Position numbers and translations under genes: made by a program
Shown: positions 39,474 to 62,607 of the stretch, piece by piece
Position numbering within the stretch: the stretch's first letter is position 1
Layout of the letters: each line of letters begins with the position of its first letter
Notes under the pieces: generated by a model
Databases searched by the model: none
What the model was told of the DNA's origin: nothing
Seen by the model: the letters and a program-made list of their open reading frames with translations, nothing else
Assembly: GCA_937912005.1 (NCBI GenBank)
Contig: CALDOX010000014.1
Span: 205,186-269,185, forward strand
Reading direction: 5' to 3'
DNA length: 64,000 nucleotides
Source: an uncultured Alphaproteobacteria bacterium
GTDB lineage: Bacteria > Pseudomonadota > Alphaproteobacteria > CAAGCB01 > CAG-977

Positions 39474-39550
39474 GCGCCCATAGCTCAACTGGATAGAGCA
39501 TCTGACTACGGATCAGAAGGCTGAGAGTTCGAATCTTTCTGGGCGCGCCA
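39474..39550 (+). tRNA. tRNA-Arg(ACG)
   Basis: GCGCCCA acceptor, anticodon loop CTACGGA (ACG), T-loop GTTCGAATC, CCA end. Confidence 0.9.
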
Positions 39551-39553
39551 ATC

Positions 39554-39581
39554 AAAACCCGCAGAATACTGCGGGTTTTTT
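39554..39581 (+). terminator. rho-independent terminator after tRNA-Arg
   Basis: aaaacccgcag-aatact-gcgggtttttt. Confidence 0.7.
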
Positions 39582-39616
39582 GTTGTCCAGAGAAATGACA
39601 GCTCTTCATAAAAATC

Positions 39617-39660
39617 GGTTTTTCTAACATTTTTCTAACAAAAAAATTTTTTCTAACATT
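39617..39660. repeat. three direct repeats of TTTCTAACA (candidate recombinase arm-type site or iteron)
   Basis: tttctaaca at 39621, 39632 and 39650, just inside the island junction. Confidence 0.4.
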
Positions 39661-39879
39661 CGAGAATAAGAAAATTTAAGCTCAAAACGCATCTTTTCTG
39701 ACCTCGGAATAAGGGAAAAATCGGAAATATCGGAAAAATTGTTCCGACAATCCAACATTTCTGCGTCTTTTTTCAGAGTCGTTCTTCGGGAAAAATATGG
39801 AAAAATGGGAAATATTGTTCAGGCATAAAGAAAAGGCGCATCCGAACGGACACGCCTTTGTCTGTTTTTGAAACCGGTT

Positions 39880-40053
39880 TTAGTTCAATGCGTCTTTCAA
39901 ACCTTTACCCGCTTTGAATTTCGGCTGTTTGGAAGCAGGGATTTTAATCGTTTCGCCTGTACGCGGATTGCGACCTTCCGTCGCTTTTTCAGAATCAACT
40001 TTCGTCAAACCGGTGTTCTTCGCGATTTCAGCCACTAATTCTGCTTTGTTCAT
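39880..40053 (-). CDS. HU-family DNA-binding protein remnant (internal deletion, 57 aa)
   Basis: [18 protein letters not shown]...[31 protein letters not shown] matches the HU N- and C-terminal segments but lacks ~33 central residues; AGGAG RBS present. Confidence 0.55.
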
Positions 40054-40089
40054 AATGCAACTCCTTAAAAATATAAACAGAAGCACAGA

Positions 40090-40434
40090 TTATCCCGTTT
40101 CAAGCCCTTTCGCAAAGTCTTTTCGTGTTTCCACGTCAAAAATATCCTGAAACGCTATCTTGGTTTTAACGACCGTCAGCGTTTGGAACGTAAGGTCAAT
40201 ATCAGTAATCATACCCGTCTTTGTGATGTAAGCGTCCTTGTCGTAATACGTTACGGAAACAAGGTCGTGTCGCCGAAGGCTCTTTAACTTTTCGGACAAG
40301 GCTTCCGTTTCATCTTCGGACAGTTCTTTTTTCGGTTCCGAAACGCGCTGTTTTTCCAATATCATTTGGTAATACTCGGTCAAAGCGTTGAATGGCAGAA
40401 ATTGACGGGCGCGTTCCTCTTTACTCGCCGCCAT
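40090..40434 (-). CDS. YolD-like protein (UmuD-analogue accessory of Y-family polymerases)
   Basis: Size (~114 aa) and sequence pattern of the YolD-like family; start overlaps the polymerase stop (ATGGCGGCGAGTAA). Confidence 0.55.
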   Translation of the reverse strand: MAASKEERARQFLPFNALTEYYQMILEKQRVSEPKKELSEDETEALSEKLKSLRRHDLVSVTYYDKDAYITKTGMITDIDLTFQTLTVVKTKIAFQDIFDVETRKDFAKGLETG

Positions 40435-41689
40435 TGTGTCCTCCGATCAACTTGTTTCGCACACGCGCCGTCGCTTTGTCCGTATAACTCATTCCTCGAA
40501 GCAAAGCGTTTTTCCCGAATTTTTGCTTGATCGCCAAGACAGCCTCTTGCATTTTCCTCTCTTTCTCGTCTTCTCCCTTTTTGGAAAACAAATCCGGCTG
40601 TAATGCCGCGTGATCTTCGTCAACAATGTTCAGAAAACAGATGGACAGTTTGCGAATGGGGGCTGTCCGGCGCGTCGTTCGGCGATAAATGCTTTCAAAC
40701 TCTTTGACGAGCTTATCATAAGAGGACGTCTGTTCGGACAGCCGCTCCGAGCCGCCGGTTGACGGCGCAACATCGCGGGATTATCCGACCCCCAGAGAGA
40801 TGCCGGAAGCGACCATATGCTTTTCAATCAGTTCGAGGGAAAGCATATCGACCATTTCTTTCAGGCAAATCAAAGCGTCTTCAAACGTGTAATCGGAAAA
40901 CAGGATTTGACTGTTCGATAAGGAGTTCGTCTTGGATTTATAAGCGTGAATATCCCTGATTTCGCAAGGCTCCCGCCCGTGCGCGTGGTCGATCAGAAAC
41001 TCCGCATTGATGCCGAACTCTTTATACAAAAGCCGTTCGTCGCAATGGGCGACGCCGTAAAGATCGTAAATTCCGTATTTTTCCAATCGGAAGGCTATTC
41101 CTCTCCCGATATTCCAAATATCCGTTATCGGACGGTGATGCCACAGCGTCTGCTCAAACGCTGGAATATCCAAATATCCGATATGGTCGGGAATGTGCTT
41201 AGCCGTTATATCCAAAGCGACTTTCGCCAGAAAAAGGTTCGTTCCGATTCCCGCCGTCGCGCAGATTCCGGTTCGCTCCATTACGGCGTTCATCAGCATT
41301 ACAGCCATTTCTTTCGGCGTTTTATGATAAATGTGCAGATAATTGGTCGCGTCAATGAACACTTCGTCAATCGAATACGGGTGAATGTCGTCCGGGGCGA
41401 CAAAGTTCAGATAAGTGCCGTAAATGTCCGCGGACACTTCCATATACCGTTTCATACGAGGCAGAGCTGTAATGTATCGGACGTTTTTCGGAATTTCAAA
41501 AATGCGGCAACGGTTATGTATTCCCAAATCTTTCATCGCCGGAGTGATCGCCAGACAGATTCCGCCGCGTCCCCGCGCGGGATCGGCAACGACAAGGTTC
41601 GTCTTAAACGGATCAAGACCGCGTTCCACGCATTCCACGGACGCGTAAAAAGATTTCAGGTCGATACACAAATAAGTCTTGTCCGGCAT
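40421..41689 (-). pseudogene. Y-family DNA polymerase (UmuC/UvrX-like) interrupted by one in-frame TAA at 40781-40783
   Basis: N-terminal 302 aa carry Y-family palm/finger motifs (LCIDLKSFYASVE, FIDATN). The same frame continues past the TAA to the characteristic C-terminus KQKFGKNALLRGMSYTDKATARVRNKLIGGHN. Confidence 0.7.
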
Positions 41690-41735
41690 ATTTTCCTCCG
41701 AATCTGACGGTATCAGATTCGTCGGTCAGAAACAA

Positions 41736-41750
41736 GAACAAAAAGAGAAC
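41736..41750. promoter_or_regulatory. alphaproteobacterial LexA box GAAC-N7-GAAC upstream of the polymerase-yolD operon
   Basis: gaacaaaaagagaac about 47 bp upstream of the polymerase start codon on the minus strand. Confidence 0.45.
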
Positions 41751-41775
41751 AATTGTATTTTAAGCCTTGATTTTC

Positions 41776-42002
41776 TCTTGATTGTCAATTCCCTCCGCCT
41801 AACGGAAGAAAAACGGTTTCCCCGACTTTCGCTCCAGTGTCGTTGCAAGCCGAGGGCGATACCCCTCCGTTTTTCTTGGAATGACAATCGCTTTCTTCTC
41901 TCCGACGAAGCACCTCGAAAGGGTTTCAGGCGCGATGCCAAAAACCCTTTAACAAGTGCTTTTTACAGAGAAGGAGCTTTCAATATGACTGATAAATTCG
42001 AC
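41776..42002 (+). repeat. structured leader repeat copy 1 (long imperfect hairpin 41778-41889, second hairpin 41918-41950, RBS, first 6 codons of ardC)
   Basis: About 90% identical to 45482-45706; arms TTGATTGTCAATTCC / GGAATGACAATCG; aaagggttt...aaaccctt hairpin. Confidence 0.7.
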
Positions 42003-42857
42003 ATCATCGAAACCGTTTCAAATACCATCATCGAACGCTTGGAAAACTTTTCCGGCGAATGGGAAAAGCCGTTCATTTCCTCTTTTGCCCGGAACATCAC
42101 GACCAAAAAGGCTTATCGCGGCATCAACATTCTGATTTTGAACTTTGCCGCTTTGTTCAACGGTTTTTCCTCGTCCGTTTGGGGAACTTATCGCCAATGG
42201 CAGGATAAAGGCTATCAGGTCAAGAAAGGCTCAAAGGCGACGACCATCGTTTTCTGGAAGCCGCTTTCGTATAAATGCGAAGTCGAAAACACCGAAACAG
42301 GCGACATCGAAGAAGTCGAAAATCAGGCTTTTGTCGCCCGTGCTTATTCCGTGTTTAACGGTTCGCAAGTCGAGGGATTCGGCGAAGACATCGAAAAAAC
42401 CGAATTTAGCGTTGAAAAGGACGTGATGGCGTTCTTTGAAAACACGGACATCACATATTTTTACGGCGCGACTTTGGCAGGCTACGACCCGAAAAACAAT
42501 GTTGTCTTAATGCCGGAAAGAAAAGACTTCAAAACGGAAACCGGCTTCGTTTCGACTTTGGCGCACGAAACAATCCACGCGACCGGACACAAGAACCGCT
42601 TAAACCGGGATATGAAAGGCCGTTTCGGAAATGAATCCTACGCCTTTGAGGAACTGATCGCCGACATCGGCGCGGGATTTGTCGCCGGATATTTGGGTTA
42701 TGACTACCAATTCAGCAAAAACAACCTTGCCTACTTAAAGTCGTGGCTCAAGGTTTTGAAGAACGACAAAAAGGCGATTTTCAAAGCCTGCTCCGAAGCG
42801 CAAAAGGCTTTTGACTATCTGCTGACATTCCAGGAAATCGGACGGGAAGCGGCTTGA
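41985..42857 (+). CDS. ardC: ArdC-like antirestriction protein (N-terminal ssDNA-binding domain plus zincin-like metalloprotease)
   Basis: N-domain pattern WGTYRQWQDKGYQVKKGSKATTIVFWKP; HExxH motif HETIHATGH; AGGAG RBS; internal start at MTDKFD. Confidence 0.7.
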   Translation: MTDKFDIIETVSNTIIERLENFSGEWEKPFISSFARNITTKKAYRGINILILNFAALFNGFSSSVWGTYRQWQDKGYQVKKGSKATTIVFWKPLSYKCEVENTETGDIEEVENQAFVARAYSVFNGSQVEGFGEDIEKTEFSVEKDVMAFFENTDITYFYGATLAGYDPKNNVVLMPERKDFKTETGFVSTLAHETIHATGHKNRLNRDMKGRFGNESYAFEELIADIGAGFVAGYLGYDYQFSKNNLAYLKSWLKVLKNDKKAIFKACSEAQKAFDYLLTFQEIGREAA

Positions 42858-42887
42858 CCGCTTCCCTCAAAAAGAGGAGAAAGGACA

Positions 42888-43049
42888 ATGAAGATTGCAT
42901 TTTTCAGACTGACGGTTTACGGCGCGAACGGATACGAAAAAGAACATTTCGACTTTGACAGCAAGGCCGCCCAACTGTCGAAATTTTACGAACTGATCGC
43001 GCAGGGATACAAGCGCGACGATTTGGAAAAAACGACCTATTATTTCTAA
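42888..43049 (+). CDS. small hypothetical protein (53 aa) co-transcribed with ardC
   Basis: Strong RBS (aggagaaagg); followed by a perfect 9-bp stem hairpin at 43053-43079. Confidence 0.3.
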   Translation: MKIAFFRLTVYGANGYEKEHFDFDSKAAQLSKFYELIAQGYKRDDLEKTTYYF

Positions 43050-43310
43050 AAAATCGGGCGGAGGTTTCCGCCGCCCGATCCGTTCGCCCAACCACTCCAC
43101 AACACAGTTGCGCCCGAACGGATATATAAGAATATTTTAACAACAAACAAACTATTAAATAGAGATTTTTTCTATAACTATAAAGGGATTGTTTTTCGGG
43201 AAAATGTAACATCTAATTTTTTTAGCTTCTAAATGCGAATACGACTAAAAAAACGATTATTTTTAGAAATATAATATTATTTATTTAATATATATATGCT
43301 GTTTGAAAAA

Positions 43311-44078
43311 TTATAATACATATCTCGACACAGCACTGTTATATATAGAGCGCATTTCTGTAAAAACATTGTCGATAAACACTAGAACAGATACGTTTAT
43401 AAAAAAATTACTCTTATTTTTGTGCGATAAAACATCCAAAGATGGGAAATAAGGATGATGAACAACATTATGAGCTTTTTCGTTTCGTATTTTTATAACA
43501 TTTTCGTAAATTTTTTTTATATCAAGCTCATTCTTTTTTTTGCCAGCGTTTTCCATATATTTCCCATACCAAGAAGCCATATGTTTATTTTTTTCTTTTT
43601 TTTGTTTGAAAAAATCATACATATACATCGTCATAAACGTTCTTTTAAACTCTTTAAACGCTATATTGTTTACAGAAAGAAATTTTGCTTTTGAAAACAT
43701 CTTATATATATTAAAGCATGTTTTTATAAACTCTTCTTTTTTATTCCATATATCTTTCGTATCTTTCTCGTTCTTTATTTTTTCTATTACATCTTTTTGT
43801 ATTGAATATACATTATTGATTGCTTCTGACGAAGAAGATAACTTTTTTGATCCATGGATTATATTATATCGCACGTCTGGAAATTCTGTTCCGATCTCCC
43901 ATAATATGTTATCGATCTTTTGCTCCAATGTTCCAGTCATTTTTAATAAAAGAGATGTTAAAATATAATCATTTAAAGGGTATGTTGATATACTATAATT
44001 AGCATTATTTGACAACAATAAATATTCCGTCAAAAACACATCAATGCGTGTATCCATTATATTCTTTGAATGAATCAT
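43311..44078 (-). CDS. hypothetical protein with C-terminal R-x4-H motif (candidate HEPN / Abi_2-like RNase)
   Basis: IRNEKAHNVVHH near the C-terminus; start ATG overlaps the stop of the upstream DUF262 gene (ATGA); very AT-rich. Confidence 0.3.
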   Translation of the reverse strand: MIHSKNIMDTRIDVFLTEYLLLSNNANYSISTYPLNDYILTSLLLKMTGTLEQKIDNILWEIGTEFPDVRYNIIHGSKKLSSSSEAINNVYSIQKDVIEKIKNEKDTKDIWNKKEEFIKTCFNIYKMFSKAKFLSVNNIAFKEFKRTFMTMYMYDFFKQKKEKNKHMASWYGKYMENAGKKKNELDIKKIYENVIKIRNEKAHNVVHHPYFPSLDVLSHKNKSNFFINVSVLVFIDNVFTEMRSIYNSAVSRYVL

Positions 44079-45346
44079 CTTAAAAGCTTCCCATATATTT
44101 CTATTGAATCTCGAAGTCTCTCACGGATTGGACCTATTTTCCCAACAGATTTTGTGTCTTGAACAGAAGAACTTTTAGATGCAATTTTTTCTGATAATTT
44201 TTGAATACGATCATCGTCTAGATTAACATCTTTCTCTTTAAAGACAGACCAAAACAATAAGCCAAATATGTAGTAATCGGCTTCTGTTATTGTTTTAAAA
44301 TGAAGATCTCTTTTTATTTTTTTTAATAAACTACAAAACGGTGTCATACGTTTTATAAAATCATTTTTAAATTCACAAAAAAGATTCTTTCCTACATAAC
44401 GAGGATCCGCTTCATTAACAACATAACTAACATACGCTGATATGTATGCTTCAAAAGGTTTTAATTTTGAGCCATACCCCACAGCAACACGAAGCGTCAC
44501 AGGAACGGTATCTTTTATTAATTCAGATGCTTGGGCTGTAAACGCCAAGAAACGAGCAAAATCTATTTTTGAATTACCAATTTTTGCATCTGCTAATTCT
44601 GCAGGTTGGAAGAAATCTTTTCGTCCTGGATTTAGCCAATATAACGCCGCACGATTTTCCTCATTGGTTAAAGGAGTTCTTGATGATAGCGAGTTTATAC
44701 TTCTAAATATACGAGAAAAAAGAATCTTTTCATTGTCTGCTTTTCCTGAATTTTCTATTATGTATGAAAAACCGAGATAACAATTCTTTAAAAAAGAACT
44801 ATCAAAATCTATTTTTTTAAATTTTTCTATTAATTCGGCATCAACATCTGATGCCGTTAAGTCTGAAATCTTGATGTATTTTCCTGTTTCTAATAAATTT
44901 CGTTTTAGTTTTTCAATATTTTCTTCTTCTTCAAATTTTTGCTGTATTCGAGAGAAAGTCCACTCATAATAAGCGTTAACATCTTCCTCTTGTGTTGTAT
45001 CTTCTTCATTGTAATCTTCACTATACGCGAGATTTTCTATTTTTGGAGCAGGCTTAGGCCATATTCCCAAATAAGTTAACAAAATGGAACTTAATCTTTG
45101 TTGCCCATCCAATATATAATTAACCTTTTTCTCATTCTCTGTATTTGAGGATATTAAAACAGGAGGGACAAAGGACCCTTCTTTAATATCTATCATCAGT
45201 TGCAAAGCCATAGAAGGTTGCCAAACAAAATACCTTTGGTATGGTGGAATAACAATATCCTTATTAAGGATCATACTTATCCAATGCCAAAGAGAATACT
45301 CTCCATAATAAACTGTAAACTTATTCAAGATAAGAGCTCCTCCCAA
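44075..45346 (-). CDS. DUF262 (ParB/GmrS-like NTP-binding) domain protein lacking the DUF1524 HNH half
   Basis: Hallmarks VIPPYQRYFVW and ILDGQQRLSSIL; no H..N..N His-Me motif in the C-terminal half. Confidence 0.6.
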   Translation of the reverse strand: MGGALILNKFTVYYGEYSLWHWISMILNKDIVIPPYQRYFVWQPSMALQLMIDIKEGSFVPPVLISSNTENEKKVNYILDGQQRLSSILLTYLGIWPKPAPKIENLAYSEDYNEEDTTQEEDVNAYYEWTFSRIQQKFEEEENIEKLKRNLLETGKYIKISDLTASDVDAELIEKFKKIDFDSSFLKNCYLGFSYIIENSGKADNEKILFSRIFRSINSLSSRTPLTNEENRAALYWLNPGRKDFFQPAELADAKIGNSKIDFARFLAFTAQASELIKDTVPVTLRVAVGYGSKLKPFEAYISAYVSYVVNEADPRYVGKNLFCEFKNDFIKRMTPFCSLLKKIKRDLHFKTITEADYYIFGLLFWSVFKEKDVNLDDDRIQKLSEKIASKSSSVQDTKSVGKIGPIRERLRDSIEIYGKLLR

Positions 45347-45481
45347 TATACCTTATTATATCCTATTCGCTACATTTCATTTTTCAACAAAAATTTTTTC
45401 TCAAAAAAAATAGATTCTTAATGTATGCAACTTATTCGGGAATATTCTGCATATATGTCATTTTTTACCCTTCCCCTTACG

Positions 45482-45706
45482 TCTTGATTGTCAATTCCCT
45501 GCCGCCTGACGGAAAAAAACGGTTTCCCCGACTTTCGCTCCGGTGTCGCTGTAAGACGGGTGATACCCCTCCGTTTTTCTTGGAATGACAATCGCTTTCT
45601 TCTCTCCGACGAAGCACCTCGAAAGGGTTTCAGGCGCGATGCCAAAAACCCTTTAACAAGTGCTTTTTACAGAGAAGGAACTTTCAAAATGACTGATAAA
45701 TTCGAC
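45482..45706 (+). repeat. structured leader repeat copy 2 (same hairpins, RBS and first 6 codons)
   Basis: About 90% identical to 41776-42002. Confidence 0.7.
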
Positions 45707-46102
45707 CAAGCCTTAAACGAAATGGAAACGACGCTTAAACCGTTTATGCCGGCCAAGCAGGCTCAAACCCTCATCGAAAACTTGCACCGTTCCGAAGAAG
45801 CCGAAGCGTTCGCGGACATCATTCTGAATCTTGCCGAGCGTATTAAAGCGATGCCGCAAGTCTATGAAACGGACGGACAAGGCAAAAACGCTTTGGCTCA
45901 ACTGCACTATTTTGTCGGTTCTTATGATGCCTACATCGTCGAAAAAGACACCGCCGAAAAGCAAATTCAGGCGTTCGGTTGGGCAAGTTTCGGATACGGT
46001 TTCGAGGCCGGATACATCTCCGTTGACGAACTTTTAGAGCTTGCGGAATTGGATTTATTTTTCACGCCTTGCCCCGTCGGACAGGCTATCAGGGAGGATT
46101 GA
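45689..46102 (+). CDS. DUF2958-like protein (conjugative leading-region family)
   Basis: Pattern LHYFVGSYDAYIVE...FGWASFGYGFEAGYISVDEL...LDLFFTP. Confidence 0.55.
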   Translation: MTDKFDQALNEMETTLKPFMPAKQAQTLIENLHRSEEAEAFADIILNLAERIKAMPQVYETDGQGKNALAQLHYFVGSYDAYIVEKDTAEKQIQAFGWASFGYGFEAGYISVDELLELAELDLFFTPCPVGQAIRED

Positions 46103-46105
46103 ACA

Positions 46106-46378
46106 ATGCTGTATTGGGATTTAATCGAGGAGTTTTTACCCGACTTTGAAGAACGCGCTGACGTAAAGTTTGACACTTCCCTGTTTAACTTCATACACGG
46201 CGGGGACGTTCCGGAAGAGGACTTGCCCGCATTGAAGACTTTGGCAAAAAGCGGTTGTCTTTCGGAAGTGTTCTTTGCGATGGAAAAGCACTTGCTCAAC
46301 GAAGCGTTCGAGGCTTACTTTGAAACAAAAATCGTCCCTAAAATCTATTACAAACAGAAAGAATACGGCTCCGAATAG
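46106..46378 (+). CDS. hypothetical protein (90 aa)
   Basis: ORF immediately after the DUF2958 gene; acidic. Confidence 0.3.
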   Translation: MLYWDLIEEFLPDFEERADVKFDTSLFNFIHGGDVPEEDLPALKTLAKSGCLSEVFFAMEKHLLNEAFEAYFETKIVPKIYYKQKEYGSE

Positions 46379-46445
46379 AGCCGTATTCCCCGAAAAAAAA
46401 TCGGTCGCCGCACGCGCGGCGACACCGTTTGAATAGCCTACAACA

Positions 46446-46600
46446 AAGGGCGGTTGGGCGGGCGCGGTCAGATTTAGGGCTGATTTGAGGTGTTTTAAGG
46501 CTGATTCGCAAGGGATTGATTCTCTTGAGGGCTACTTTTTTGCAGGATAGCCTTTTCGTCCGACGAAAAGAGCGAAAAAAGCCCCGCCAACCCGCCCTTG
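46446..46600. other. candidate oriT: GC-rich inverted repeat pair flanking GGCTGATT-type direct repeats, upstream of mobC
   Basis: gggcggttgggcggg (46448-46462) versus cccgccaacccgccc (46582-46596); internal repeats agggctgatttgagg / aaggctgattcgcaaggg. Confidence 0.4.
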
Positions 46601-46644
46601 AAATCGCCCTCAAACAGCTGTAAAATTTCTTCCGTCACACACGC

Positions 46645-47016
46645 TTGAACGACTTTATTGCGAGGCTAAAAATGCCAATGTTGCGTAAATCGTTCAGAAT
46701 AGAAAAAGAAATTTGGGACGCGCTTGTCGCCGAAAAACAATGTCCGTCCCGCCTGATCCGGTTGTTCATTCTTGCGGGGATTCATCAGATGAAGATCCCG
46801 CACTATGACGAAATCCTCCTGCTGACAAAGCTCGAAGAACAAGCCCGAAAGGTCGGCGTCAACACCAATCAAGCTGTCCGCGCTTTGAACACGACGTTGA
46901 TAAAAAAGCAATCTCTTGAAGAAAAAACTTTACGGGATTTACAGCAGGCTTGCAGAGAACTTCACGCGCTCCGAGAAAAAATCAACAGACTTTTGGCGGC
47001 GTATTATGGCGAATAA
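46645..47016 (+). CDS. mobC: MobC-family relaxosome accessory protein
   Basis: vGvNtNQavRaLN motif (VGVNTNQAVRALN); stop overlaps the relaxase start. Confidence 0.6.
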   Translation: MNDFIARLKMPMLRKSFRIEKEIWDALVAEKQCPSRLIRLFILAGIHQMKIPHYDEILLLTKLEEQARKVGVNTNQAVRALNTTLIKKQSLEEKTLRDLQQACRELHALREKINRLLAAYYGE

Positions 47017-47737
47017 ACGGAACTGGTTAGACGAACATATCCGGGGTATATACGTCAAACAGCAACGCTTTCCGGTTCACTATTCCCCTCCGGCAAGACA
47101 GAGGGCGACACTTTCTTTCAAAGTGCCGCCGCCGGAAGCTATGGTTAAAGTCGCTTTCTATGTCAAATCACTGCAAGGGGCGAAGAACATCGCTCATTAT
47201 ATCGCTCACGGTTCGGAGGGAATGGAAAAAGACGCCCGTGTTTATGACGACGAACGGCGACTGATCCCGACCGAGAAACTGAACGAAACGATAGACGCTT
47301 ATGATCTGGAACAGCGGCGGAAGAACGGGAACGCGATGGTTCACCTGATCGTATCTTTTCCCAAAAGAATGAACGTCAGCGAGGACGAAGCATACCGGTT
47401 TATTGAGCGGTATATGGAACCTTTCGCGGAAAGAGGGTATCGGTATTTATACGCCGTTCACACACATCAATCGGCAACGCACGGACACATTTTGTTGAAA
47501 ATGTCGAACGGACGGGAGCGGCTGAAACTCAAAAAGCCGCAACTTCAAATGCTCCGGCAACATCAGGTCGAAGTCGCCAAAGAGTTCGGTTGGGAGATGC
47601 AGGCGACACGTTTTCAGGACAGAGATTTCTCTCTGACGCAGATGGTTATTCCGCGCAAGCACAAAACGATCCGGCAGCTTCGCGAACTTCACGAACGGAG
47701 AAGATCGGTGGAACAAACGGAGGAACGGGAAAGGTAA
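47006..47737 (+). CDS. MobA/VirD2-type relaxase (relaxase domain only, 243 aa)
   Basis: Histidine triad VHTHQSATHGHIL; N-terminal region AHYIAHGSEG; internal start MANKRNW coupled to mobC. Confidence 0.6.
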   Translation: MANKRNWLDEHIRGIYVKQQRFPVHYSPPARQRATLSFKVPPPEAMVKVAFYVKSLQGAKNIAHYIAHGSEGMEKDARVYDDERRLIPTEKLNETIDAYDLEQRRKNGNAMVHLIVSFPKRMNVSEDEAYRFIERYMEPFAERGYRYLYAVHTHQSATHGHILLKMSNGRERLKLKKPQLQMLRQHQVEVAKEFGWEMQATRFQDRDFSLTQMVIPRKHKTIRQLRELHERRRSVEQTEERER

Positions 47738-47805
47738 AAACGACTTGGCTTTTTGATAAAAATAATCACAATTTGTTGTATGTTAAAAAATGTATTTATT
47801 GGTCA

Positions 47806-47831
47806 AGCAGGGAATTATCCCTGCTTTTTTT
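47806..47831 (+). terminator. terminator/attenuator-like hairpin upstream of the tail-fibre gene
   Basis: agcaggg-aattat-ccctgc followed by a T7 run. Confidence 0.5.
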
Positions 47832-47844
47832 ATTTGAGGTAAAA

Positions 47845-49506
47845 ATGACGGTAAGTACAACAACAAACAAAGTTGTTTATATCGGGAACGGAATTGCAAC
47901 TACATTTGCAATCCCGTTTCCTTTTTTGGAAAGGGAGCATTTAAAGGTCAGACAACTTTTAAACAACGTGCAGACGGAAAGGACGGATTGGACGGTTTCG
48001 GGCGGGAATATGGTTTTTGCGACGGCTCCGGCGGATGATGCGCAAATCGTGATTATGCGCGAAGTGCCGTTGACGCAGGAAACTGACTATCGGGAAAACG
48101 AGGTTTTGCCGGCTGAAACGCTTGAACGCAATTTCGACAAGCTGACAATGCAGATTCAACAGCTGAAAGAGCAGGCGGAACGGGCGGTAACGGTGGACTT
48201 ATTTTCAGCTTCTGATCCATCTGTATTAGTAGATAAAATTGAAAAACTTTACCGTATCAAAGACGAGATAGTTGTTGCGGCTCAAAACATCTCATCGTTG
48301 ACGACAGTTTCGGACGATATTTCTTCTATTCATACCGCGGCTACTCACATATCTGCTATTACTGATGCGATAAATCAAGCAACACAAGCCTCCAGCAGTG
48401 CCAATAAAGCCCGAATCTGGGCAGAAGGAACGGATGAGGAAATCGTGTCTGTCAATGGAATCCATTCCGCAAAAAGATGGGCAGAAATTATGGATACGAC
48501 GGAATTTAACAAAACGTACACAGCAAGCCGTGTTTTGTCTGTTCCACAAAACATAAAAATTTCTCTGACGGCAGGAGTTGTAAAACTAACTGCAGGAAGT
48601 GTCGTTTATGATGGGAACGGTAACAATATGAGGCTTCAGCAAGACCTTTCTTTAAACGGTGGATTTCAAGGAAAAGGACTGCTGGTTGTTTCAAAGACGG
48701 GTCATTTGTGGGAAATGGATTTAACACATGTCTTTTCCCAAACAACAGAACCGGCGGCTCCGTATCTTTGGTATAATCCGAACACCAAGATAACAAGATT
48801 TAACGATAATTTGGGAACGGTCGGCGAAGTATATTTGCCATGCGCGCAAGTTGTCTATTTGGGCTCGTCTTATGTTCAGATAGATCGAGTATTCAACGGA
48901 ATCGGTTGTATTGCTTCAACCGTATTTGTTTTGCCTCATATCAAAGGACAGGCCTTACAATCAATCAGTTCGGACGGTACTTGTTCTAATACGATATGGG
49001 AAACAAGTGGTGTTCAGACAGTCGCAGTAAATAATACGCTTCATCTTGTTGTTGATGCGAACGGGATGCTGAATACGAAAAGCACTTTTAATGTTTTTTC
49101 CGATATTGGTTTCACAGACTTAGGAATAGTCGTTGTCAGCGGAGGATCGATTGTTTCGATGCCGAGCAGAAGTATAGATACAATCAATACATATCCAACC
49201 TCTGAACTGGCCAAAATGGGAATGCCCGGAAGCAAAAGGCTTATTGTAGTAACAGGTGCTTCTTTCGCAACCTACATCGCCCCAGCAAACAGATTTTTTA
49301 CAATTTCCGGAACAGTTGAGGTGAATAGTTTTGCCTTTGTGGATATTGAGAACCTCTCAACTTTTATCAAAGATTCCGATCATTCTTATACGTTAGGCTC
49401 AACTATATCCGCCTATATTCCGGCAAAAGCGGGAGAAAGCGTCCAAATCGCTTACGGACAAACTACACCAGTTGTTTCATTTATCTACGCAGAAGGAGAA
49501 GAATAA
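47845..49506 (+). CDS. phage tail-fibre protein with T7 gp17-type N-terminal (tail-attachment) domain
   Basis: N-terminus KVVYIGNGIATTFAIPFPFLEREHLKV...DYRE resembles T7 gp17 (VLTYQLDGSNRDFNIPFEYL...DYRF); Ala/Ser-rich shaft repeats; beta-rich C-terminus; GAGG RBS. Confidence 0.6.
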   Translation: MTVSTTTNKVVYIGNGIATTFAIPFPFLEREHLKVRQLLNNVQTERTDWTVSGGNMVFATAPADDAQIVIMREVPLTQETDYRENEVLPAETLERNFDKLTMQIQQLKEQAERAVTVDLFSASDPSVLVDKIEKLYRIKDEIVVAAQNISSLTTVSDDISSIHTAATHISAITDAINQATQASSSANKARIWAEGTDEEIVSVNGIHSAKRWAEIMDTTEFNKTYTASRVLSVPQNIKISLTAGVVKLTAGSVVYDGNGNNMRLQQDLSLNGGFQGKGLLVVSKTGHLWEMDLTHVFSQTTEPAAPYLWYNPNTKITRFNDNLGTVGEVYLPCAQVVYLGSSYVQIDRVFNGIGCIASTVFVLPHIKGQALQSISSDGTCSNTIWETSGVQTVAVNNTLHLVVDANGMLNTKSTFNVFSDIGFTDLGIVVVSGGSIVSMPSRSIDTINTYPTSELAKMGMPGSKRLIVVTGASFATYIAPANRFFTISGTVEVNSFAFVDIENLSTFIKDSDHSYTLGSTISAYIPAKAGESVQIAYGQTTPVVSFIYAEGEE

Positions 49507-49895
49507 TGTATAAAGGCCATCAGAACGGAAAATTAAAGTTCATTTGGAATGAAAAAGAAAAACAACCGTCTTTGATAAATTTGGAAAAAGTGGAAATAGA
49601 CAATGAACATACCATCAACGATTATGTTCAATACCACAAAGAGTTTATTCTAAAAACGGATTATCCTGTTCCTGTGGAAAACGAAAACATTCGTCAGAAA
49701 CGCCAAGAGCATTTTGTTTCAGAAACGGATCCTTTGAAGTTTGATATGGATGAACTCCGTGTTCGTTATGAGCAAGAAGCAGATGAACAAAAGAAAACAG
49801 AATTTTTAAAAAAGATAGGTCTGTTGCGGGAAGAATGGTTGATTAAAAAAGATCGAATTCGTGAGGAGTTTCCTTTTATAGAAAACAAACCTTAA
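49506..49895 (+). CDS. hypothetical protein (possible tail-fibre assembly/chaperone); overlaps the fibre stop (TAATG)
   Basis: Translational coupling to the fibre gene. Confidence 0.3.
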   Translation: MYKGHQNGKLKFIWNEKEKQPSLINLEKVEIDNEHTINDYVQYHKEFILKTDYPVPVENENIRQKRQEHFVSETDPLKFDMDELRVRYEQEADEQKKTEFLKKIGLLREEWLIKKDRIREEFPFIENKP

Positions 49896-49922
49896 CGATA
49901 ATAGAATCAACGGTTAAATATT

Positions 49923-49957
49923 TAGCCGACAGCACTGATAATTCGTGCTGTCGGCTA
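49923..49957. terminator. bidirectional terminator hairpin
   Basis: tagccgacagcac-tgataattc-gtgctgtcggcta followed by a T run. Confidence 0.6.
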
Positions 49958-50012
49958 TGATTTTTAATATATAAGGATTCAACGAAAAACTTTTTTATAA
50001 AATGGTTATCTT

Positions 50013-51047
50013 TTATTGATTTTTTCTAAATTTGGCTTTCATGATGATTTTATACATTTTTTTCTTTTTTGATATTCTCTTTTTCAGCTTCCCAAAAGAA
50101 ATCATTTTTAAAAATGAGTAAAAAATGTATTTTAAGAAGACTGCTTTTTTTTGCTTAATGAAATCATACTCTTTTGAATACGTTTTTTTTAATTCTTCAC
50201 AAAGAGGCTTATTACAGTCAATTTTTTGAATAAATGTCATCAATGTGAACAAAAACGTATCTTCTTCATCGCATAAAAAAAAACGTTGTTTTTCTTTCAG
50301 AAAACGAAGATAAGCCAGTCCGCATTTTTCAAACCATTCTTCGGTTTTCATCATGCCTGTCCAAATGCCACCTTTATTCCGGCGATAAACAGCCATCACA
50401 TCCGGCAGGAACGCTATTTTCCCTGTTTGTGCGTGCAGTAAATGCAGAAACCAGTCTGCCGGTAAAATCCCGCTCGGAATCGAATCCAAAGAATCTTGAT
50501 GAAAGCGCCATCTGTAAACAACAGAGTTTGTTTGAATGAAATTATGATCCAACAAATCTTTTAGTGATAATTCTGTTTTATATAAGCGATATTTATCTTC
50601 CGGAAAAATTTCATCCGGTAAAGAAGCGTCGTTATAATGAACTGTTACAGGATGAAAGCAAACAGAAAAATCAGGGTGAGCATCTAAAAAATCGACTTGT
50701 TTTTGCAATTTTAAAGGATCTGTCCAATAATCATCACCCTCACATAAAGCGACATATTGACCGCGAATCATCGGAAAAAGAATGTCTTTGCCGATTTCTT
50801 TCTTCCCCCATTGATTTTCTGTCTGATAGACACAGCGGAATAAGTGAGGATACTTGCCTTCATATTCTCGAATAATGTTCGCCGTTTTATCTGTCGAAGC
50901 GTCGTCGTTAATTAAAACTTCAAACGGGAAATTTGCCTTTTGCATCACGAAACCATTCAAACATTCGCGAATAAACGGTTCTTGATTGTATGCCAAACAA
51001 ACAATAGAGAGTTTTATATTATCGCCATTTGATTTTTTGTAAGTCAT
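50013..51047 (-). CDS. family 2 glycosyltransferase
   Basis: GT-A N-terminal domain (SIVCLAYNQEPFI, INDDASTD, DxD in CEGDDYW); AT-rich. Confidence 0.65.
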   Translation of the reverse strand: MTYKKSNGDNIKLSIVCLAYNQEPFIRECLNGFVMQKANFPFEVLINDDASTDKTANIIREYEGKYPHLFRCVYQTENQWGKKEIGKDILFPMIRGQYVALCEGDDYWTDPLKLQKQVDFLDAHPDFSVCFHPVTVHYNDASLPDEIFPEDKYRLYKTELSLKDLLDHNFIQTNSVVYRWRFHQDSLDSIPSGILPADWFLHLLHAQTGKIAFLPDVMAVYRRNKGGIWTGMMKTEEWFEKCGLAYLRFLKEKQRFFLCDEEDTFLFTLMTFIQKIDCNKPLCEELKKTYSKEYDFIKQKKAVFLKYIFYSFLKMISFGKLKKRISKKKKMYKIIMKAKFRKNQ

Positions 51048-51076
51048 AATTAAATTTTCCTAAATTCATACATTCT

Positions 51077-52765
51077 TTATCCCCATTGCTTTTTTATCCA
51101 ATTAAATAAATCGTTTTCCCGTTCTTTAATAGTAACTTTATTCCAACCTTTTTTCTTAATTAAATCAGAAACCTCACGTTCAATAAATAAATCTCTATAT
51201 GCGTCTTTTTTCTCATCCGGTTTTTTATCTTGAAGAGAGCTATTCTTAGAGGCTTCTAAGATCAAAAGATTACCCAATCGATGTTTATAGATTTTATCAT
51301 TTTTTTCTGCATCAAAAGAATCCACGCAGTGTTCTGTATCTGCTTTTGGGAAAATATGCTCAATAGTATCTTTTACAGGAGAAGTTAAAATTGCATTCCA
51401 AGTTTTTTTCTGTATTTGCTTTGTTTTCCGCGCTTTTTCAGCTAAATATAATTCTCGTTTATAAAATAAGTATTTTAATTCTTCATCCCAAGTTTCATAT
51501 AAATTTGATTTTTTTAAAAACTTAATAGCTTGTTCAATATTACAATCTTCAGAAAGTTTCTGTATTTGTTTTATAGCATCTTTGTATTTAATTACTCCTT
51601 TAATGATATTCCGTCCAATGACAATAAAATCACCTACTTTAAAACGAGCATCTTTCTGTTCAAGGCCATAAATTTTAAACGTTGATTTCTCCCATTCCGC
51701 AATCAATTCTTCCTTTTGATCATGAGTATAATTGGACAACCAAATACATAAAGCTAAAAAGCGAGGCTGTTGAATACGAATTAAAAATCTAATGCTATTA
51801 TTTATTTCTAATTCTTTTAATTTAGAAATATATTTCTTTAATTCTCTTGCTATTTCTATAGCATTTGAAGATTTTCCTTCACTTTTTTTCATTAAGTATA
51901 AAACACTGTCTTCCTCTTTTAAAAAACGGCTGGTTGTATCTTTTAAAGTAGCAAGATAACGAATTGCCATTGAACCAAATTCTTTATTTTCACCTAATTC
52001 ATCATAGATAGAAGACCAAATTTTATGCATAGATTCAATTTGAGATTTTGTTGCGGTTTTTTCATAAAGAAGCCCCATCATCATACATTTTAATCTATCC
52101 AACCATTCAACGGGGAGACCGCGAAAATTAAGAACTTCAAAGGTTCTATAGACTACACTTTCATCATCAATGGTATGCAATATAAAAGAGAGTTTGTTTT
52201 TTAATAAAGCATATAAATCAAGAATCTTTGCATTATTTTTGTTTATCCATTTATCAACGAATTCTTGACATAACTGTATTGAATTTTTTAATAACCGATC
52301 TGAAAGTCTTTGAATATCGTCATCAGTATTATTAATTGTTCCTTTTCTTAGCCATTCAGAGAATATTTCATGTTTATCGTGGTTCATTTTTAAAATAGGC
52401 GTTGTGTGCTTATCTGATTTTACAAGAATCCGTCCTAATTCATTTTTATCTTCCGTATTATCCTCTAACTTTAAGTAGATTGCTTTCAATAAAATCAACA
52501 AAGTAGTGATTCTTTGTTGTCCGTCAACGATATCATAAATTGTATATTCTGTTGTGCTGCCTAAATTTTCTTTTTCTTTGTGTTTTAAACAAACCAATGT
52601 AGCCATGAAATGTTCAGAACGTTTATGCTCATAAACATTTTCTATATCAGAAAACAATGCCTTGATTTGCTTCTCTTCCCAACTATAAGCTCTTTGATAT
52701 TCTGGAATCGAAAAAAGGCGTTCATTTAACAGCTGACTTAAAGTATACAATTCCGGTTTTAACAT
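51077..52765 (-). CDS. GmrSD-family type IV restriction endonuclease (DUF262 plus DUF1524)
   Basis: N-terminal IPEYQRAYSW and VDGQQRITTL; C-terminal His-Me finger EHIFP...LGNLLILEASKNSSLQDK. Confidence 0.7.
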   Translation of the reverse strand: MLKPELYTLSQLLNERLFSIPEYQRAYSWEEKQIKALFSDIENVYEHKRSEHFMATLVCLKHKEKENLGSTTEYTIYDIVDGQQRITTLLILLKAIYLKLEDNTEDKNELGRILVKSDKHTTPILKMNHDKHEIFSEWLRKGTINNTDDDIQRLSDRLLKNSIQLCQEFVDKWINKNNAKILDLYALLKNKLSFILHTIDDESVVYRTFEVLNFRGLPVEWLDRLKCMMMGLLYEKTATKSQIESMHKIWSSIYDELGENKEFGSMAIRYLATLKDTTSRFLKEEDSVLYLMKKSEGKSSNAIEIARELKKYISKLKELEINNSIRFLIRIQQPRFLALCIWLSNYTHDQKEELIAEWEKSTFKIYGLEQKDARFKVGDFIVIGRNIIKGVIKYKDAIKQIQKLSEDCNIEQAIKFLKKSNLYETWDEELKYLFYKRELYLAEKARKTKQIQKKTWNAILTSPVKDTIEHIFPKADTEHCVDSFDAEKNDKIYKHRLGNLLILEASKNSSLQDKKPDEKKDAYRDLFIEREVSDLIKKKGWNKVTIKERENDLFNWIKKQWG

Positions 52766-52792: not shown

Positions 52793-53710
52793 TTAACGGT
52801 TCTGTTTTTTTATGATCGTTTTCACCGCTTCGATTTCATCCGCGCAGAAACCGCTTGTATCGCTGCGAATGATGCCGTTTTCGTTCAGGAGGCACGGCAG
52901 GCTTAAAGCGGTGTCTGTATGACCGAACTCGCCGTTTAATGGGCGGGTCAGAGGGACGCATATCGTGTATCCCTGTTTGATTTCGTTGATGATGTAGGCG
53001 ATACAGCCGGCGATACCGTAATGCGTGCGCCCTTTGCCTTTGATGATGTCCGCACCCATATCGGCAATGTGTTGCGCGATGGTTTGTTTGTCCGTTTCGG
53101 TCAGTGTTTTATTATGCGTCACCAGCCACTCGGGCAACGGCTGATTTTCAACCGTAACGGAGCTCCACAAAAGAATGGAATTGGAGCCGTGTTCTCCGAC
53201 GACAAAAGCGCGGATCGATTTTTCCGCTACGCCCAAAAAGTCGCCCAATACCGAACGGAAACGAGCGGAATCCAACAGGCATCCCGTGCCGAACACGCGT
53301 CCCGTTGTTTCGTTCAATTCTTCCGCGATGATCTGTGTGATCGTATCGACGGGATTGGACACGACGATGACCAGTCCGTGCGCGTTGTTTTCTTTCAATT
53401 TAGCGGCGATATCTTTGGCAATGACAGCATTTCTTCCGATCAGATCCATGCGCGTTTCACCGACTTTCCGATTGACGCCCGCCGTAACGATGACGATATC
53501 ACTGTCCGCCGTATCAGCATAGGATCCTTGAAAAACCTTTGTCGGACTGATTTCCGCCAATCCGGGGCGAATGTCGGCGACTTCCGCTCTGACCGCTGTG
53601 TCGTTGATGTCGATCAAAGCGATTTCGTCTGCGGCTTCGACGAGCATCAGCGAATACGCTATGCTGGAACCGACATATCCCGCTCCGATGATGGAAATCT
53701 TTTTTATCAT
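52793..53710 (-). CDS. L-lactate/malate dehydrogenase family protein
   Basis: Rossmann motif ISIIGAGYVGSS; LDH/MDH core motifs. Confidence 0.7.
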   Translation of the reverse strand: MIKKISIIGAGYVGSSIAYSLMLVEAADEIALIDINDTAVRAEVADIRPGLAEISPTKVFQGSYADTADSDIVIVTAGVNRKVGETRMDLIGRNAVIAKDIAAKLKENNAHGLVIVVSNPVDTITQIIAEELNETTGRVFGTGCLLDSARFRSVLGDFLGVAEKSIRAFVVGEHGSNSILLWSSVTVENQPLPEWLVTHNKTLTETDKQTIAQHIADMGADIIKGKGRTHYGIAGCIAYIINEIKQGYTICVPLTRPLNGEFGHTDTALSLPCLLNENGIIRSDTSGFCADEIEAVKTIIKKQNR

Positions 53711-55942: not shown

Positions 55943-56528
55943 GGCTCACCTCTTTGATAAAAATATCCTGCGGGTCGGAAAACGTCGCCCCGAACGTGGC
56001 ATAGACGTTCATTACCGCCGCGTTTTGCGTGCTGACGCGCCCTTCCAGTTTTTTATACCCGCGCTCTTTGGCGATCTTGCAGGCGTTCGCATACAAAGCC
56101 ATAGCCGCTCCCGTCATACGGTACTTTTCCTCTACAGCCGCCAAATGCACGAACACCGTATCCGGCGCCGTTTCTTTCAACGCCAGAAATCCGACAGGCT
56201 GTTCTTTGAACAAAGCGACAAAGACGGTGTCCAACTCATCGACCCATTTTTTCAAAACGACGCCTGAAACATCGGTCGAACAGTCGGGTAGAACGTGAAA
56301 CCGCCGGTCATAAGCAAACGAAGCGACGGCAATACGCAAAACATCGTCCTTATATTCCGCCGTTTCGATGATCGGCAGACGGATGAACCTGTCCAGATCG
56401 ACCGCGATTTTAGACAGGCTGATCGTTGTTTTCATCGTCCGGTCGGCAAAGAAAAAGCCGTCCCGCTGCATACGGATTTCGTTGGCGGCATCGGTTGGCG
56501 CGACAATGTATCCGTCCGTTTCCGTCAT
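55932..56528 (-). CDS. GNAT-family N-acetyltransferase
   Basis: C-terminal GNAT core (VHLAAVEEKYRMTGAAMALY). Confidence 0.5.
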   Translation of the reverse strand: MTETDGYIVAPTDAANEIRMQRDGFFFADRTMKTTISLSKIAVDLDRFIRLPIIETAEYKDDVLRIAVASFAYDRRFHVLPDCSTDVSGVVLKKWVDELDTVFVALFKEQPVGFLALKETAPDTVFVHLAAVEEKYRMTGAAMALYANACKIAKERGYKKLEGRVSTQNAAVMNVYATFGATFSDPQDIFIKEVSHDA

Positions 56529-57958: not shown

Positions 57959-58154
57959 AGCTGTTCAAATCGACGATGTCGTCGGGTTCCAACATAATGT
58001 CGAACGCTTCCTCGATCTGCGCGACCAAGCCCATGTGCCCGACGGAATCCCAAGCGTCGATCGCCTGAAACTTCAAGCCTTTCGCCGTGTCCGCATCGAT
58101 GTCGAATGCCTGACAAAAGGCATTCGTGTATTTTTCCTCGTTTGTCATTTGCAT
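57909..58154 (-). CDS. acyl carrier protein
   Basis: Phosphopantetheine attachment motif DAWDSVGHMGLV. Confidence 0.7.
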   Translation of the reverse strand: MQMTNEEKYTNAFCQAFDIDADTAKGLKFQAIDAWDSVGHMGLVAQIEEAFDIMLEPDDIVDLNSYEKGKEILAKYNVEFA

Positions 58155-61442: not shown

Positions 61443-61460
61443 TTCTTTATCCTTATTTTC

Positions 61461-62597: not shown

Positions 62598-62607
62598 TGT
62601 TTCCCTT

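Follow-up and report, generated by a model that had tools for sequence, protein, structure and literature searches.

Integrative and mobilizable elements (IMEs) encode their own integration and excision (PMC5704250). In leading regions, anti-defence genes lie on the side of the origin of transfer (oriT) that enters the recipient first and have the transferred strand as their template (PMC11541004). The relaxase TrwC of R388 catalyses integration at a resident oriT (PMC3264647). In Rhodobacter capsulatus, the head-spike gene of the gene transfer agent (GTA) RcGTA, rcc01080, is numbered next to the capsule genes rcc01081-86 (PMC10218006). Here we describe a locus that is compared below with these systems. 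It lies in a 64,000-nt stretch of DNA (hereafter, the window) of an uncultured Alphaproteobacteria bacterium (assembly GCA_937912005.1, contig CALDOX010000014.1, positions 205,186 to 269,185 of the forward strand). A first-pass annotation had described positions 39551-52765, directly after a tRNA-Arg(ACG) gene, as an integrated mobilizable element. Comparison with related loci identified the segment as an inserted element of conjugative ancestry, placed exactly at the 3' end of the tRNA-Arg gene. We consider it probable that the backbone of a partly decayed, non-autonomous element extends from 39551 to about 49956 and that this element belongs to a family comprising integrative and conjugative elements (ICEs) as well as IMEs of uncultured gut and rumen Alphaproteobacteria.

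The tRNA gene and the adjoining end of the element have the following features.

39474-39550, plus strand: tRNA-Arg(ACG), called by ARAGORN; Rfam tRNA score 66 bits
39551-39879, plus strand: element end region, resembling an attL arm, with a terminator hairpin, TTCTAACA repeats and GGAAA-rich iterated motifs
39554-39579: terminator hairpin of the end region
39622-39658: three TTCTAACA repeats of the end region
39707-39814: GGAAA-rich iterated motifs of the end region

Comparison loci were found with the lipoprotein gene beside the tRNA (38151-39272) as query. Sixteen loci were obtained: 15 from uncultured gut or rumen Alphaproteobacteria (labelled Alphaproteobacteria, Rhodospirillales, Rhodospirillaceae or 'Acetobacter sp. 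CAG:977') and one from a bin titled Limosilactobacillus gorillae. These and all other relatives with L numbers are metagenomic contigs, many of them short. The tRNA-Arg(ACG) gene was at the same position in all 16. Alignment placed the left junction at 39551, directly 3' of the tRNA CCA. L008 and L002 part from the window sequence right after GCGCGCCAA; L005, L001 and L059 remain alike. In L008, the closest relative, the tRNA is followed by truB and pnp, and in L002 and L003 by DUF1090 and msrAB, so that all three sites are empty. The element is present at the same tRNA in L005, L001 and L059. L005 comes from a different species and has the same gene order: HU, YolD, polymerase, ArdC, a 137-aa gene, a 90-aa gene, MobC, relaxase and tail fibre. 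Between the window and L005, the element proteins were 92-98% identical (HU excepted), compared with 66-74% for three flanking core proteins. At the DNA level, identity was 94% for the element and 75% for the flank. Flanking core genes were 66-80% identical across the species that carry the element. The first-pass annotation had placed the tRNA and its terminator before the element genes and had proposed a comparison with relatives for presence or absence of the segment. Both the placement and the integration were borne out: the site is polymorphic, and the identity of the element is far above that of its flanks. With 94% identity between species that share only about 75% in their core DNA, the backbone has moved recently.

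The DNA common to the window and L005 begins at the first base 3' of the CCA, and the T-arm of the tRNA follows the host (GAGAGTTCGAATCTTTC in the window, GGGGATTCGAATTCTCC in L005). Therefore, any att core would be at most about 12 nt long. The 23-mer that had been put forward as the core was excluded for the same reason. Within the window, TTCTAACA is restricted to the end region. A TCTAACA-N4-TCTAACA pair occupies the equivalent place after the tRNA in L001, L005, L016 and L059, and the same pair follows the tRNA-Arg(TCT) at which an ICE of the family is inserted in L017. In L042, GGGTAACA pairs stand at both ends of an IME. By analogy with L042, the repeats of the end region might be arm sites for an integrase or Xis.

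Two further observations concern other genomes. L014 (1-9732) has a different element at this tRNA-Arg, with the type of structured leader described below, an ArdC 52% identical to that of the window, an NPPY methyltransferase, a mid-element tyrosine integrase, AlpA-like and cI/cro-like genes and a primase. Its repeats are TTAAACG, in place of the TCTAACA of the window. A 321-aa T2SSE-type ATPase gene was found in L002 (7234-8199) and also in L003, L004, L005 and L007. The copies are 97-100% identical, their hosts' core genes are only 66-80% identical and their position relative to tRNA-Arg varies. This gene probably belongs to another mobile element.

The left 39 kb of the window are ordinary chromosome (ftsK, obg, proB, proA, pgm, tsaD, gpsA and others). 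The first-pass annotation had also claimed that composition switches at the tRNA. However, the GC content of the backbone was 47-49% against 46 +/- 4.4% for the core, and the element is not marked by composition. Only four AT-rich outliers were seen: a DUF262 operon (30% GC), a 129-aa ORF (34%), a GT2 gene (34%) and a GmrSD gene (29%).

The mobilization region of the segment has the following features.

46379-46644, no strand assigned: oriT region, from an alignment of five relatives and from inverted-repeat and promoter scans
46598-46626: mobC promoter TTGAAA-17-TAAAAT, from the promoter scan
46672-47016, plus strand: mobC relaxosome accessory gene, 114 aa (PF19514, MobC_2, E 1.9e-7; homologues also called at 114 aa)
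47006-47737, plus strand: relaxase of a short class, 243 aa (PF03432, E 1e-11, a modest match)

Residues Y67, H115, H154, H156, H161 and H163 of the relaxase are invariant across the family and present in the window. Relaxases of the family fall into two natural length classes, a short one of 243-250 aa and a long one of about 345 aa, and the window relaxase is apparently intact. The 266-nt spacer before mobC is conserved even in L017. The five-relative alignment revealed an invariant inverted repeat at 46404-46423. The predicted nick core is GCTATCCTG|C on the minus strand (46542-46551), and GCAGGATAGC at this position adjoins a 9-bp inverted repeat (46552-46570). The invariant repeat and GCAGGATAGC are kept even where relaxase identity falls to 43%. 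This is the value for L042, in which GCAGGATA and a different hairpin lie upstream of mobC. The RP4/Ti nick consensus is YATCCTG|Y, and an inverted repeat is typically located about 8-9 nt 5' of nic. The minus strand of the window shows an inverted repeat, followed by 9 nt whose last letters are ATCCTG and by a C. We regard this ATCCTG|C as a predicted nick core of the RP4/Ti type at the usual position. With the PF03432 match, the catalytic residues, the inverted repeat and the nick-like core, the window has a relaxase and a putative cognate oriT, and the oriT-like repeat with MobC and relaxase noticed in the first pass was upheld. The position of the core on the minus strand implies that this strand would be transferred and that the leading region would run from 46540 downward. 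An R388-like nick (T/ATAGCC) after the first inverted repeat was rejected, because its sequence is unconserved in L019 and L017.

The relaxase family is confined to these uncultured Alphaproteobacteria. Its 90%-identity cluster has 229 members, and a search against 72,556 plasmids gave one weak match. No match was found when the whole segment was compared with plasmids by megablast, nor in exact-protein look-ups of three core flank proteins and the 90-aa protein. The most informative relative is L017, a full conjugative element with a type IV secretion system inserted at tRNA-Arg(TCT). Its order is ArdC, SduA (Shedu-type), 137 aa, 90 aa, MobC, relaxase, coupling protein and VirB11/10/9/8, and its relaxase is 59-60% identical to that of the window. 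When the secretion-system operon of the family ICE was followed, no integrase was met within the 20 kb examined; the ICE extends further. L042 is a small IME that encodes MobC, a relaxase, a resolvase and a restriction-modification system, and its tyrosine integrase stands at the far end. In L017, a partial second relaxase (11091-11471) stands just after the 342-aa relaxase and is 79% identical to the C-terminal half of the window relaxase. Recombination between the long and short classes seems to have left this fragment behind.

The window copy lacks most of what such an element would need for moving on its own. About 65 ORFs across the window were scanned against Pfam or NCBIfam, and none was a recombinase. 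A tblastn search with the integrases of L042 and L014 and a resolvase found nothing in the window at E<=10 except a chance resolvase match (E 5.3) at 22798-23031. The 23-mer from the tRNA 3' end matched only itself in the window with up to 3 mismatches, and shorter cores were at chance level. No second TCTAACA cluster was present in the window. The absence of an integrase and of a right att repeat had already been reported, with a suggestion to search for both; within the 64 kb, our searches agree on both points. No VirB/Trb or type IV coupling protein (T4CP) family was found in any ORF of 39551-64000. The complete mating apparatus of an ICE is thus missing, for which L017 has T4CP, VirB11, VirB10, VirB9 and VirB8. 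An integrase or recombinase of its own, as in an IME, was not found within 64 kb, and neither was an attL and attR pair with a common core, though the left junction is exact. The segment does not qualify as a cis-mobilizable element (CIME) either, for it keeps mobC, relaxase and oriT and has no attR in the window. Under the definition of PMC5704250, the window copy is neither an IME nor a CIME. Judged by its genes, it meets the DNA-processing needs of a mobilizable element and lacks the means for a mating channel, integration and excision.

On the predicted leading side of oriT we found a duplicated leader, an anti-restriction gene, a variable cassette and two small genes.

41776-42002, plus strand: structured leader, copy 1, a direct repeat that reaches the first six ardC codons
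41985-42857, plus strand: ArdC anti-restriction protein (PF08401, E 1.1e-32; PF18818, E 2.1e-37)
43133-45480, minus strand: AT-rich defence-like cassette in a variable slot, GC 30%
43311-44078, minus strand: 255-aa partner protein of the cassette
44075-45346, minus strand: DUF262/GmrSD_N-only protein of the cassette (PF03235)
45482-45706, plus strand: structured leader, copy 2, 95-98% identical to copy 1, entering the first codons of the 137-aa gene
45689-46102, plus strand: 137-aa conserved leading-region gene (phrog_5203, E 1.3e-19)
46106-46378, plus strand: 90-aa conserved leading-region gene

ArdC has both expected domains, a single-stranded-DNA-binding N domain and a zincin metallopeptidase with HETIH, which bears out the ArdC call of the first-pass annotation. 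It is 98.6% identical to that of L005 and 82% to that of the L017 ICE. Being a plus-strand gene to the left of the predicted minus-strand nick core, ardC lies on the leading side of oriT, which also agrees with the earlier proposal. Contingent on the predicted nick strand, ardC and the 137-aa and 90-aa genes have the arrangement of leading-region anti-defence genes. The 137-aa/90-aa pair is kept beside oriT in L005, L017, L019, L059 and L061. Neither protein belongs to a Pfam family, and the 137-aa protein has no relative in PDB, its only match being phrog_5203. The DUF2958 (PF11171) label given to 45689-46102 was not supported, as there was no Pfam match even at E<=1.

The leader of about 230 nt has two copies in the window and folds as two long hairpins. 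Its folding z-scores were -5.3 (DNA, minus strand) and -5.6 (RNA, plus strand). Compensatory changes were present at 9 of 62 pairs, against 0-3 in slid controls, and 94.5% of cells pair in an alignment of nine copies, taken from the window and five other loci. The Shine-Dalgarno sequence is sequestered within the second hairpin, and the sense orientation has more G-U pairs. For these two reasons we lean, by a small degree, toward an mRNA leader. A single-strand promoter like Frpo is the other, less likely candidate. A promoter scan and manual inspection placed no sigma-70 promoter in or before the leader, either in double-stranded DNA or in either hairpin arm. The lower stem has a TTGACA on its minus strand, but no -10 that could serve it. 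Neither the leader nor oriT matched a family in Rfam. ArdC and the 137-aa protein, which are unrelated, both start with MTDKFD (codons 41985-42002 and 45689-45706), because the leader repeat extends into both reading frames.

In the window, the two leader copies enclose ardC and the variable cassette. The cassette slot is empty in L005 and holds SduA_C (Shedu-type) in L017 and a 204-aa SWIM-like gene in L061. In L019, a DUF2726/DUF559 gene precedes the leader, and the contig begins there. L059 has neither ardC nor the cassette and a single, hybrid leader, as expected of recombination between the two copies. The defence-like operon of the first-pass annotation could be recognized as two AT-rich genes with weak PADLOC hits. 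The protein at 44075-45346 does not combine DUF262 and DUF1524 as GmrSD does, having the N-domain only. Its 255-aa partner had no profile match in Pfam, PADLOC or PHROGs; by eye, IRNEKAH in this protein reads as the HEPN-like motif R-x4-H.

Between the end region and the leading region lies an accessory module.

39880-40056, minus strand: HU-family gene (PF00216), with the Pfam match in two pieces
40090-40434, minus strand: YolD-like protein, partner of a Y-family polymerase (PF08863, E 1e-9; the L005 copy is 92% identical)
40424-41689, minus strand: Y-family polymerase of the ImpB/MucB/UmuC type (PF00817)

The YolD/polymerase cassette and the truncated HU, both named in the first pass, were recovered. 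Compared by alignment with the 90-aa genes of L005 and L001, the window HU has lost 33 codons in frame, and the deletion is flanked by short direct repeats, CCTTC(C/G)GTCGC. The HU gene is probably a pseudogene. The polymerase has a lone in-frame stop at codon 303 (40781-40783), where L005 has Y303 in an intact protein of 422 aa. As it reads, the polymerase gene is inactivated by this single nonsense codon. The signs of decay proposed earlier are thus real in the window copy.

To the right of the relaxase, a tail-fibre module meets a glycan cluster.

47848-49506, plus strand: podovirus-type tail fibre with an N-terminal tail-anchor domain, a coiled-coil shaft and a beta-rich C-terminal part
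49506-49956, plus strand: 129-aa ORF at the position of a tail-fibre assembly chaperone, GC 34%
49924-49956: bidirectional terminator hairpin after the 129-aa ORF
50013-51047, minus strand: GT2 glycosyltransferase (PF00535), first gene of the convergent glycan cluster
51077-52765, minus strand: full-length GmrSD-type type IV restriction enzyme (PF03235 and PF07510), between the GT2 and LDH-like genes
52793-64000, minus strand, running off the window: glycan/acyl-modification cluster with LDH-like, LuxC, LuxE, GNAT, AMP-ligase, split transketolase, SDR and FabH-like genes (Pfam)

The tail-fibre call of the first pass was confirmed by the N-domain, which matched phrog_1640 (E 5.5e-34) and, in PDB, the Dpo31 N-domain (E 8e-8). 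PF03906 scored 22.4 bits, just under its cutoff of 25.2. The AlphaFold model had a pLDDT of 70.7, and Foldseek matched only the N-terminal part, with probability 1.0 to the N-domains of Carin-1, Kp7, LME-1 and T7 gp17; Kp9 was matched also. By fold and sequence, this is the domain with which podovirus tail fibres dock on a T7-like adaptor-nozzle. The C-terminal domain had no significant fold match in Foldseek, only weak ones to a TNF/C1q-like jelly roll. Homology with L005 and L062-66 ends inside the fibre gene at 48198-48205 (48198 for L005), as is usual where receptor domains are swapped. A terminator lies between the relaxase and fibre genes. The junction of these genes, including a 110-nt spacer, shows 88% DNA identity across at least three lineages. 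The 129-aa ORF occupies the position of the Phage_tail_APC genes of L005, L062-66 and L024. It has no Pfam match (PF16778) and no BLASTP similarity to the chaperones of L005 or L062; from its position, it may be a tail-fibre chaperone.

GT2 and GmrSD had been listed as cargo of the element. Both genes are present. However, L025 has a 60%-identical GT2 directly beside the LDH-like gene with no GmrSD between them, so GT2 belongs to the glycan cluster rather than to the backbone of the mobile element, and GmrSD is a separate insertion there and no demonstrated cargo. The GmrSD protein has both domains and a PADLOC match to HEC-06 (E 7e-49). The end that had been given at 52765 is the end of this ORF and no element boundary. 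Within the cluster, a 49-nt repeat (61761-61809 and 63866-63914; 86% identical) is common to the FabH-like paralogues at 61461-62681 and 63569-63970, with a pair of SDR genes nearby. This suggests a local duplication.

The arrangement of fibre and glycan genes is not peculiar to the window. The fibre family numbers 116 clusters, and one related MAG encodes both a fibre (MBR4127388) and a relaxase (MBR4127389). The five contigs L062-66 have a fibre homologue whose N-domain is 84% identical to that of the window, and their order is always relaxase, fibre, Phage_tail_APC chaperone and convergent polysaccharide cluster, with a tyrosine integrase left of the relaxase. Among them, 99% identity extends from the relaxase over 11 kb or more of glycan genes; on the left they are flanked by differing core genes, and their integrases differ. 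L024, found through the LDH-like gene alone, has a cluster homologous to that of the window, which ends at a convergent chaperone and a fibre of the same family. In the window, L005, L062 and L024, the fibre module and the first glycan gene are separated by 85-120 nt with one bidirectional hairpin. Between the window and L062-64, identity is near 100% on the right-hand side of the nick core and about 70% on the left-hand side. In L065, the break is 10 nt further right, within the inverted repeat.

Some further details of these oriT regions were seen. In L001 (1-252), homology to the window ends exactly after the nick core GCAGGATAGC, and by eye the sequence beyond resembles the 3' end of an IS110-family-like transposase gene. 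There may be an insertion sequence at or beside the nick site in this copy, and on account of this transposase end, the stop in homology was rejected as a trace of transfer. The mobC gene is partly deleted in L063-L066 (window equivalents 46648-46717 and/or 46841-46872), and the relaxase is intact. To the left of oriT in L062-L066, an integrase, a 233-aa gene and AbiEii have the orientation in which the transferred strand would be their template.

These features could be combined as follows. Outward from the tRNA, the element consists of the TCTAACA end region, the HU-YolD-polymerase module with two dead genes, the leading region (ardC, swappable defence cassette, 137-aa and 90-aa genes), and then oriT, mobC and the short relaxase. 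The relaxase would nick the minus strand at ATCCTG|C (46543/46542). The nicked strand would leave 5' end first towards lower coordinates, so that the 90-aa and 137-aa genes and ardC, all oriented with the transferred strand as template, would enter the recipient first. As there is no type IV secretion system, coupling protein or integrase in the window, transfer would need outside help, perhaps from a co-resident conjugative relative such as an ICE of the L017 type. Excision would depend on an integrase that acts in trans or whose gene lies beyond the window. On its right side, the relaxase is joined to the podovirus-type fibre module, which stands back to back with the glycan cluster over one terminator. 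Since the fibre-glycan arrangement recurs in other contigs, the island probably does not end at 52765. Its right end would be either near 49.95 kb or past 64000, and the close contact of fibre module and glycan cluster in several unrelated contigs makes continuation to the right likely.

A right end past 64000 would make the locus one large integrative mobilizable island, running from the tRNA through the fibre and the glycan cluster to an integrase and an attR (a repeat of CTGGGCGCGCCA), with the window cutting a complete copy. We regard this as a serious possibility, though with somewhat less than an even chance. The glycan cluster was missing after tRNA-Arg in all 16 related genomes, the 85-120 nt with one bidirectional terminator leave no room for att and arm sites, and the 99% identity of L062-66 runs from the relaxase to at least 11 kb into the glycan genes while their left flanks are different core genes. 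L042 also has its integrase at the end distal to mobC. However, the visible sequence stops at 64000, the integrase of L062-66 is left of oriT rather than far right, the mobility of the L023-25 clusters is not demonstrated, and glycan loci vary in many bacteria without being on elements. If the glycan cluster were ordinary chromosome, the locus might be a small fixed remnant of an IME or ICE that lost its right part (secretion system, integrase and attR) by deletion, with an edge near 49956. This is doubtful, because chance adjacency does not explain the repeated occurrence of the fibre next to glycan genes in L005, L062-66 and L024, and the 94% identity of the backbone against about 75% for core DNA between species indicates recent movement. 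It would fit the two pseudogenes of the backbone, the absence of attR and of a second arm-motif cluster in the window, the secretion system that full-length L017 has where the fibre sits, and the synteny breakpoint at tRNA-Arg, where the right flanks of L008 and L002 differ.

Accretion of unrelated pieces at a tRNA hot spot (a fibre from a prophage remnant, a mobilization module and defence genes) is improbable. In its favour, elements commonly land at tRNA genes, this one is occupied by a different element in L014, a terminator separates the relaxase from the fibre gene, and the fibre is without any other phage gene. However, the relaxase-fibre junction with its 110-nt spacer is 88% identical in at least three lineages. 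Moreover, no repeat of the tRNA end was found between the modules or in any related locus, and there is accordingly no evidence for tandem accretion. That the genes are native to the chromosome and have no mobile history is hardly credible in view of the empty sites in relatives, the excess of element over flank identity and the presence of relaxase, oriT and ArdC, even though the GC content of the backbone equals that of the host.

Several points weigh against our preferred reading of a partly decayed, non-autonomous family member. No right end was found, so that the element is defined on one side only, and because the backbone has the GC content of the host, composition lends no independent support. 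The nick motif is a 7-mer, of which several chance occurrences are expected in 64 kb, and nicking, transfer and the helper relationship are all inferred. The kinship of the L062-66 hosts is not established. The same integrase-less layout and relaxase-fibre junction in L005 are hard to explain by independent decay; they suggest a larger island with an integrase further right, or spread without an integrase. The integrase-less layout in two species may stem from an integrase that lies far away or acts in trans, or from joining at a resident oriT.

We also offer a more speculative view, to which we give no more than a minor chance. The oriT-mobC-relaxase block with the N-half of the fibre might be a conserved 'handle' at a hypervariable glycan locus. 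The C-half of the fibre, the chaperone and the glycan genes would change as one cassette that matches a phage-like particle to the sugar coat, and the modules left of the nick would be swapped. If so, a GTA-like particle, a tailocin or a helper podovirus would be fitted to the coat specified by the same island. The swapped left modules would be an ICE leading region with the tRNA end, or various integrases, and relaxase-mediated joining at a resident oriT may explain how integrase-less versions spread between species.

As first stated, the finding was nothing unusual: a mobilizable element in decay at a tRNA gene. The comparisons define a conjugative and mobilizable family in an abundant uncultured gut and rumen lineage, with a relaxase nearly missing from plasmid databases. 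They also describe a compact natural leading region, where two copies of a structured leader flank a slot for defence exchange (DUF262/HEPN-like, Shedu-like, DUF2726/DUF559, SWIM-like or empty). The recurring order of relaxase, fibre, chaperone and glycan genes hints at a link between the receptor-binding protein of a particle and the surface sugar, on DNA movable by conjugation, and the break in homology at the predicted nick site is to be seen together with it. Should the link be real, it would bear on how surface-glycan diversity, the host range of phages and GTAs, and conjugation are coupled in gut bacteria. In the literature, we found no paper that connects a relaxase with a tail fibre and a glycan locus. 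Elsewhere in the window, an AAA_33/zeta-toxin-like gene and a DUF6998 gene (2037-3212) adjoin tRNA-Met(CAT) at 3259-3335 and may form a small islet.

Among known systems, the locus resembles IMEs and decayed ICEs at tRNA genes (PMC5704250) in its insertion at a tRNA 3' end, in having oriT, mobC and relaxase without a mating apparatus, in its defence and adaptive cargo and in modular exchange with related ICEs. It differs in that the window has no integrase and the relaxase family is essentially without relatives among the 72,556 plasmids. Unlike CIMEs, the window copy keeps a relaxase, and no attR was found. With leading-region islands (PMC11541004), it shares anti-restriction and small genes beside oriT on the side predicted to enter first, a umuC-like polymerase nearby and a repeated structured sequence upstream of two leading genes, as in Frpo and ssi. 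Different are the defence cassette, which lies inside the region on the opposite strand, the integrated state and the uncultured lineage. In contrast to Frpo, no -35/-10 pair could be placed in the hairpins of the window, their G-U bias is to the sense strand and the Shine-Dalgarno sequence is sequestered; with the latter two properties, the leader may be an mRNA leader instead.

The relaxosome resembles the MOBP/MOBQ type (RP4 TraI, Ti VirD2 and RSF1010 MobA) in the PF03432 match, the histidine cluster, the conserved tyrosine and mobC upstream. The core ATCCTG|C, too, is found 9 nt 3' of an inverted repeat, and the relaxase gene comes last on the strand that bears it. The window relaxase, however, has only 243 aa and a modest Pfam match (E 1e-11), and it was likened to this type without MOB-specific profiles. 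Joining of the TrwC kind (PMC3264647) would explain the exchange left of the nick and the constancy right of it, but TrwC belongs to the MOBF relaxases and has two catalytic tyrosines. Ordinary homologous recombination where a conserved block ends would fit the break in homology at the nick site equally well.

RcGTA (PMC10218006) likewise has an alphaproteobacterial fibre gene of a phage-like particle next to receptor capsule genes, an adjacency taken from locus-tag numbers only. Its particle is siphovirus-like, whereas the window fibre has a podovirus anchor of the T7 type and is joined to a relaxase and oriT. No particle genes are known from the window lineage. By analogy, RcGTA may serve as a loose precedent for the link between the receptor half of the fibre and the glycan locus.

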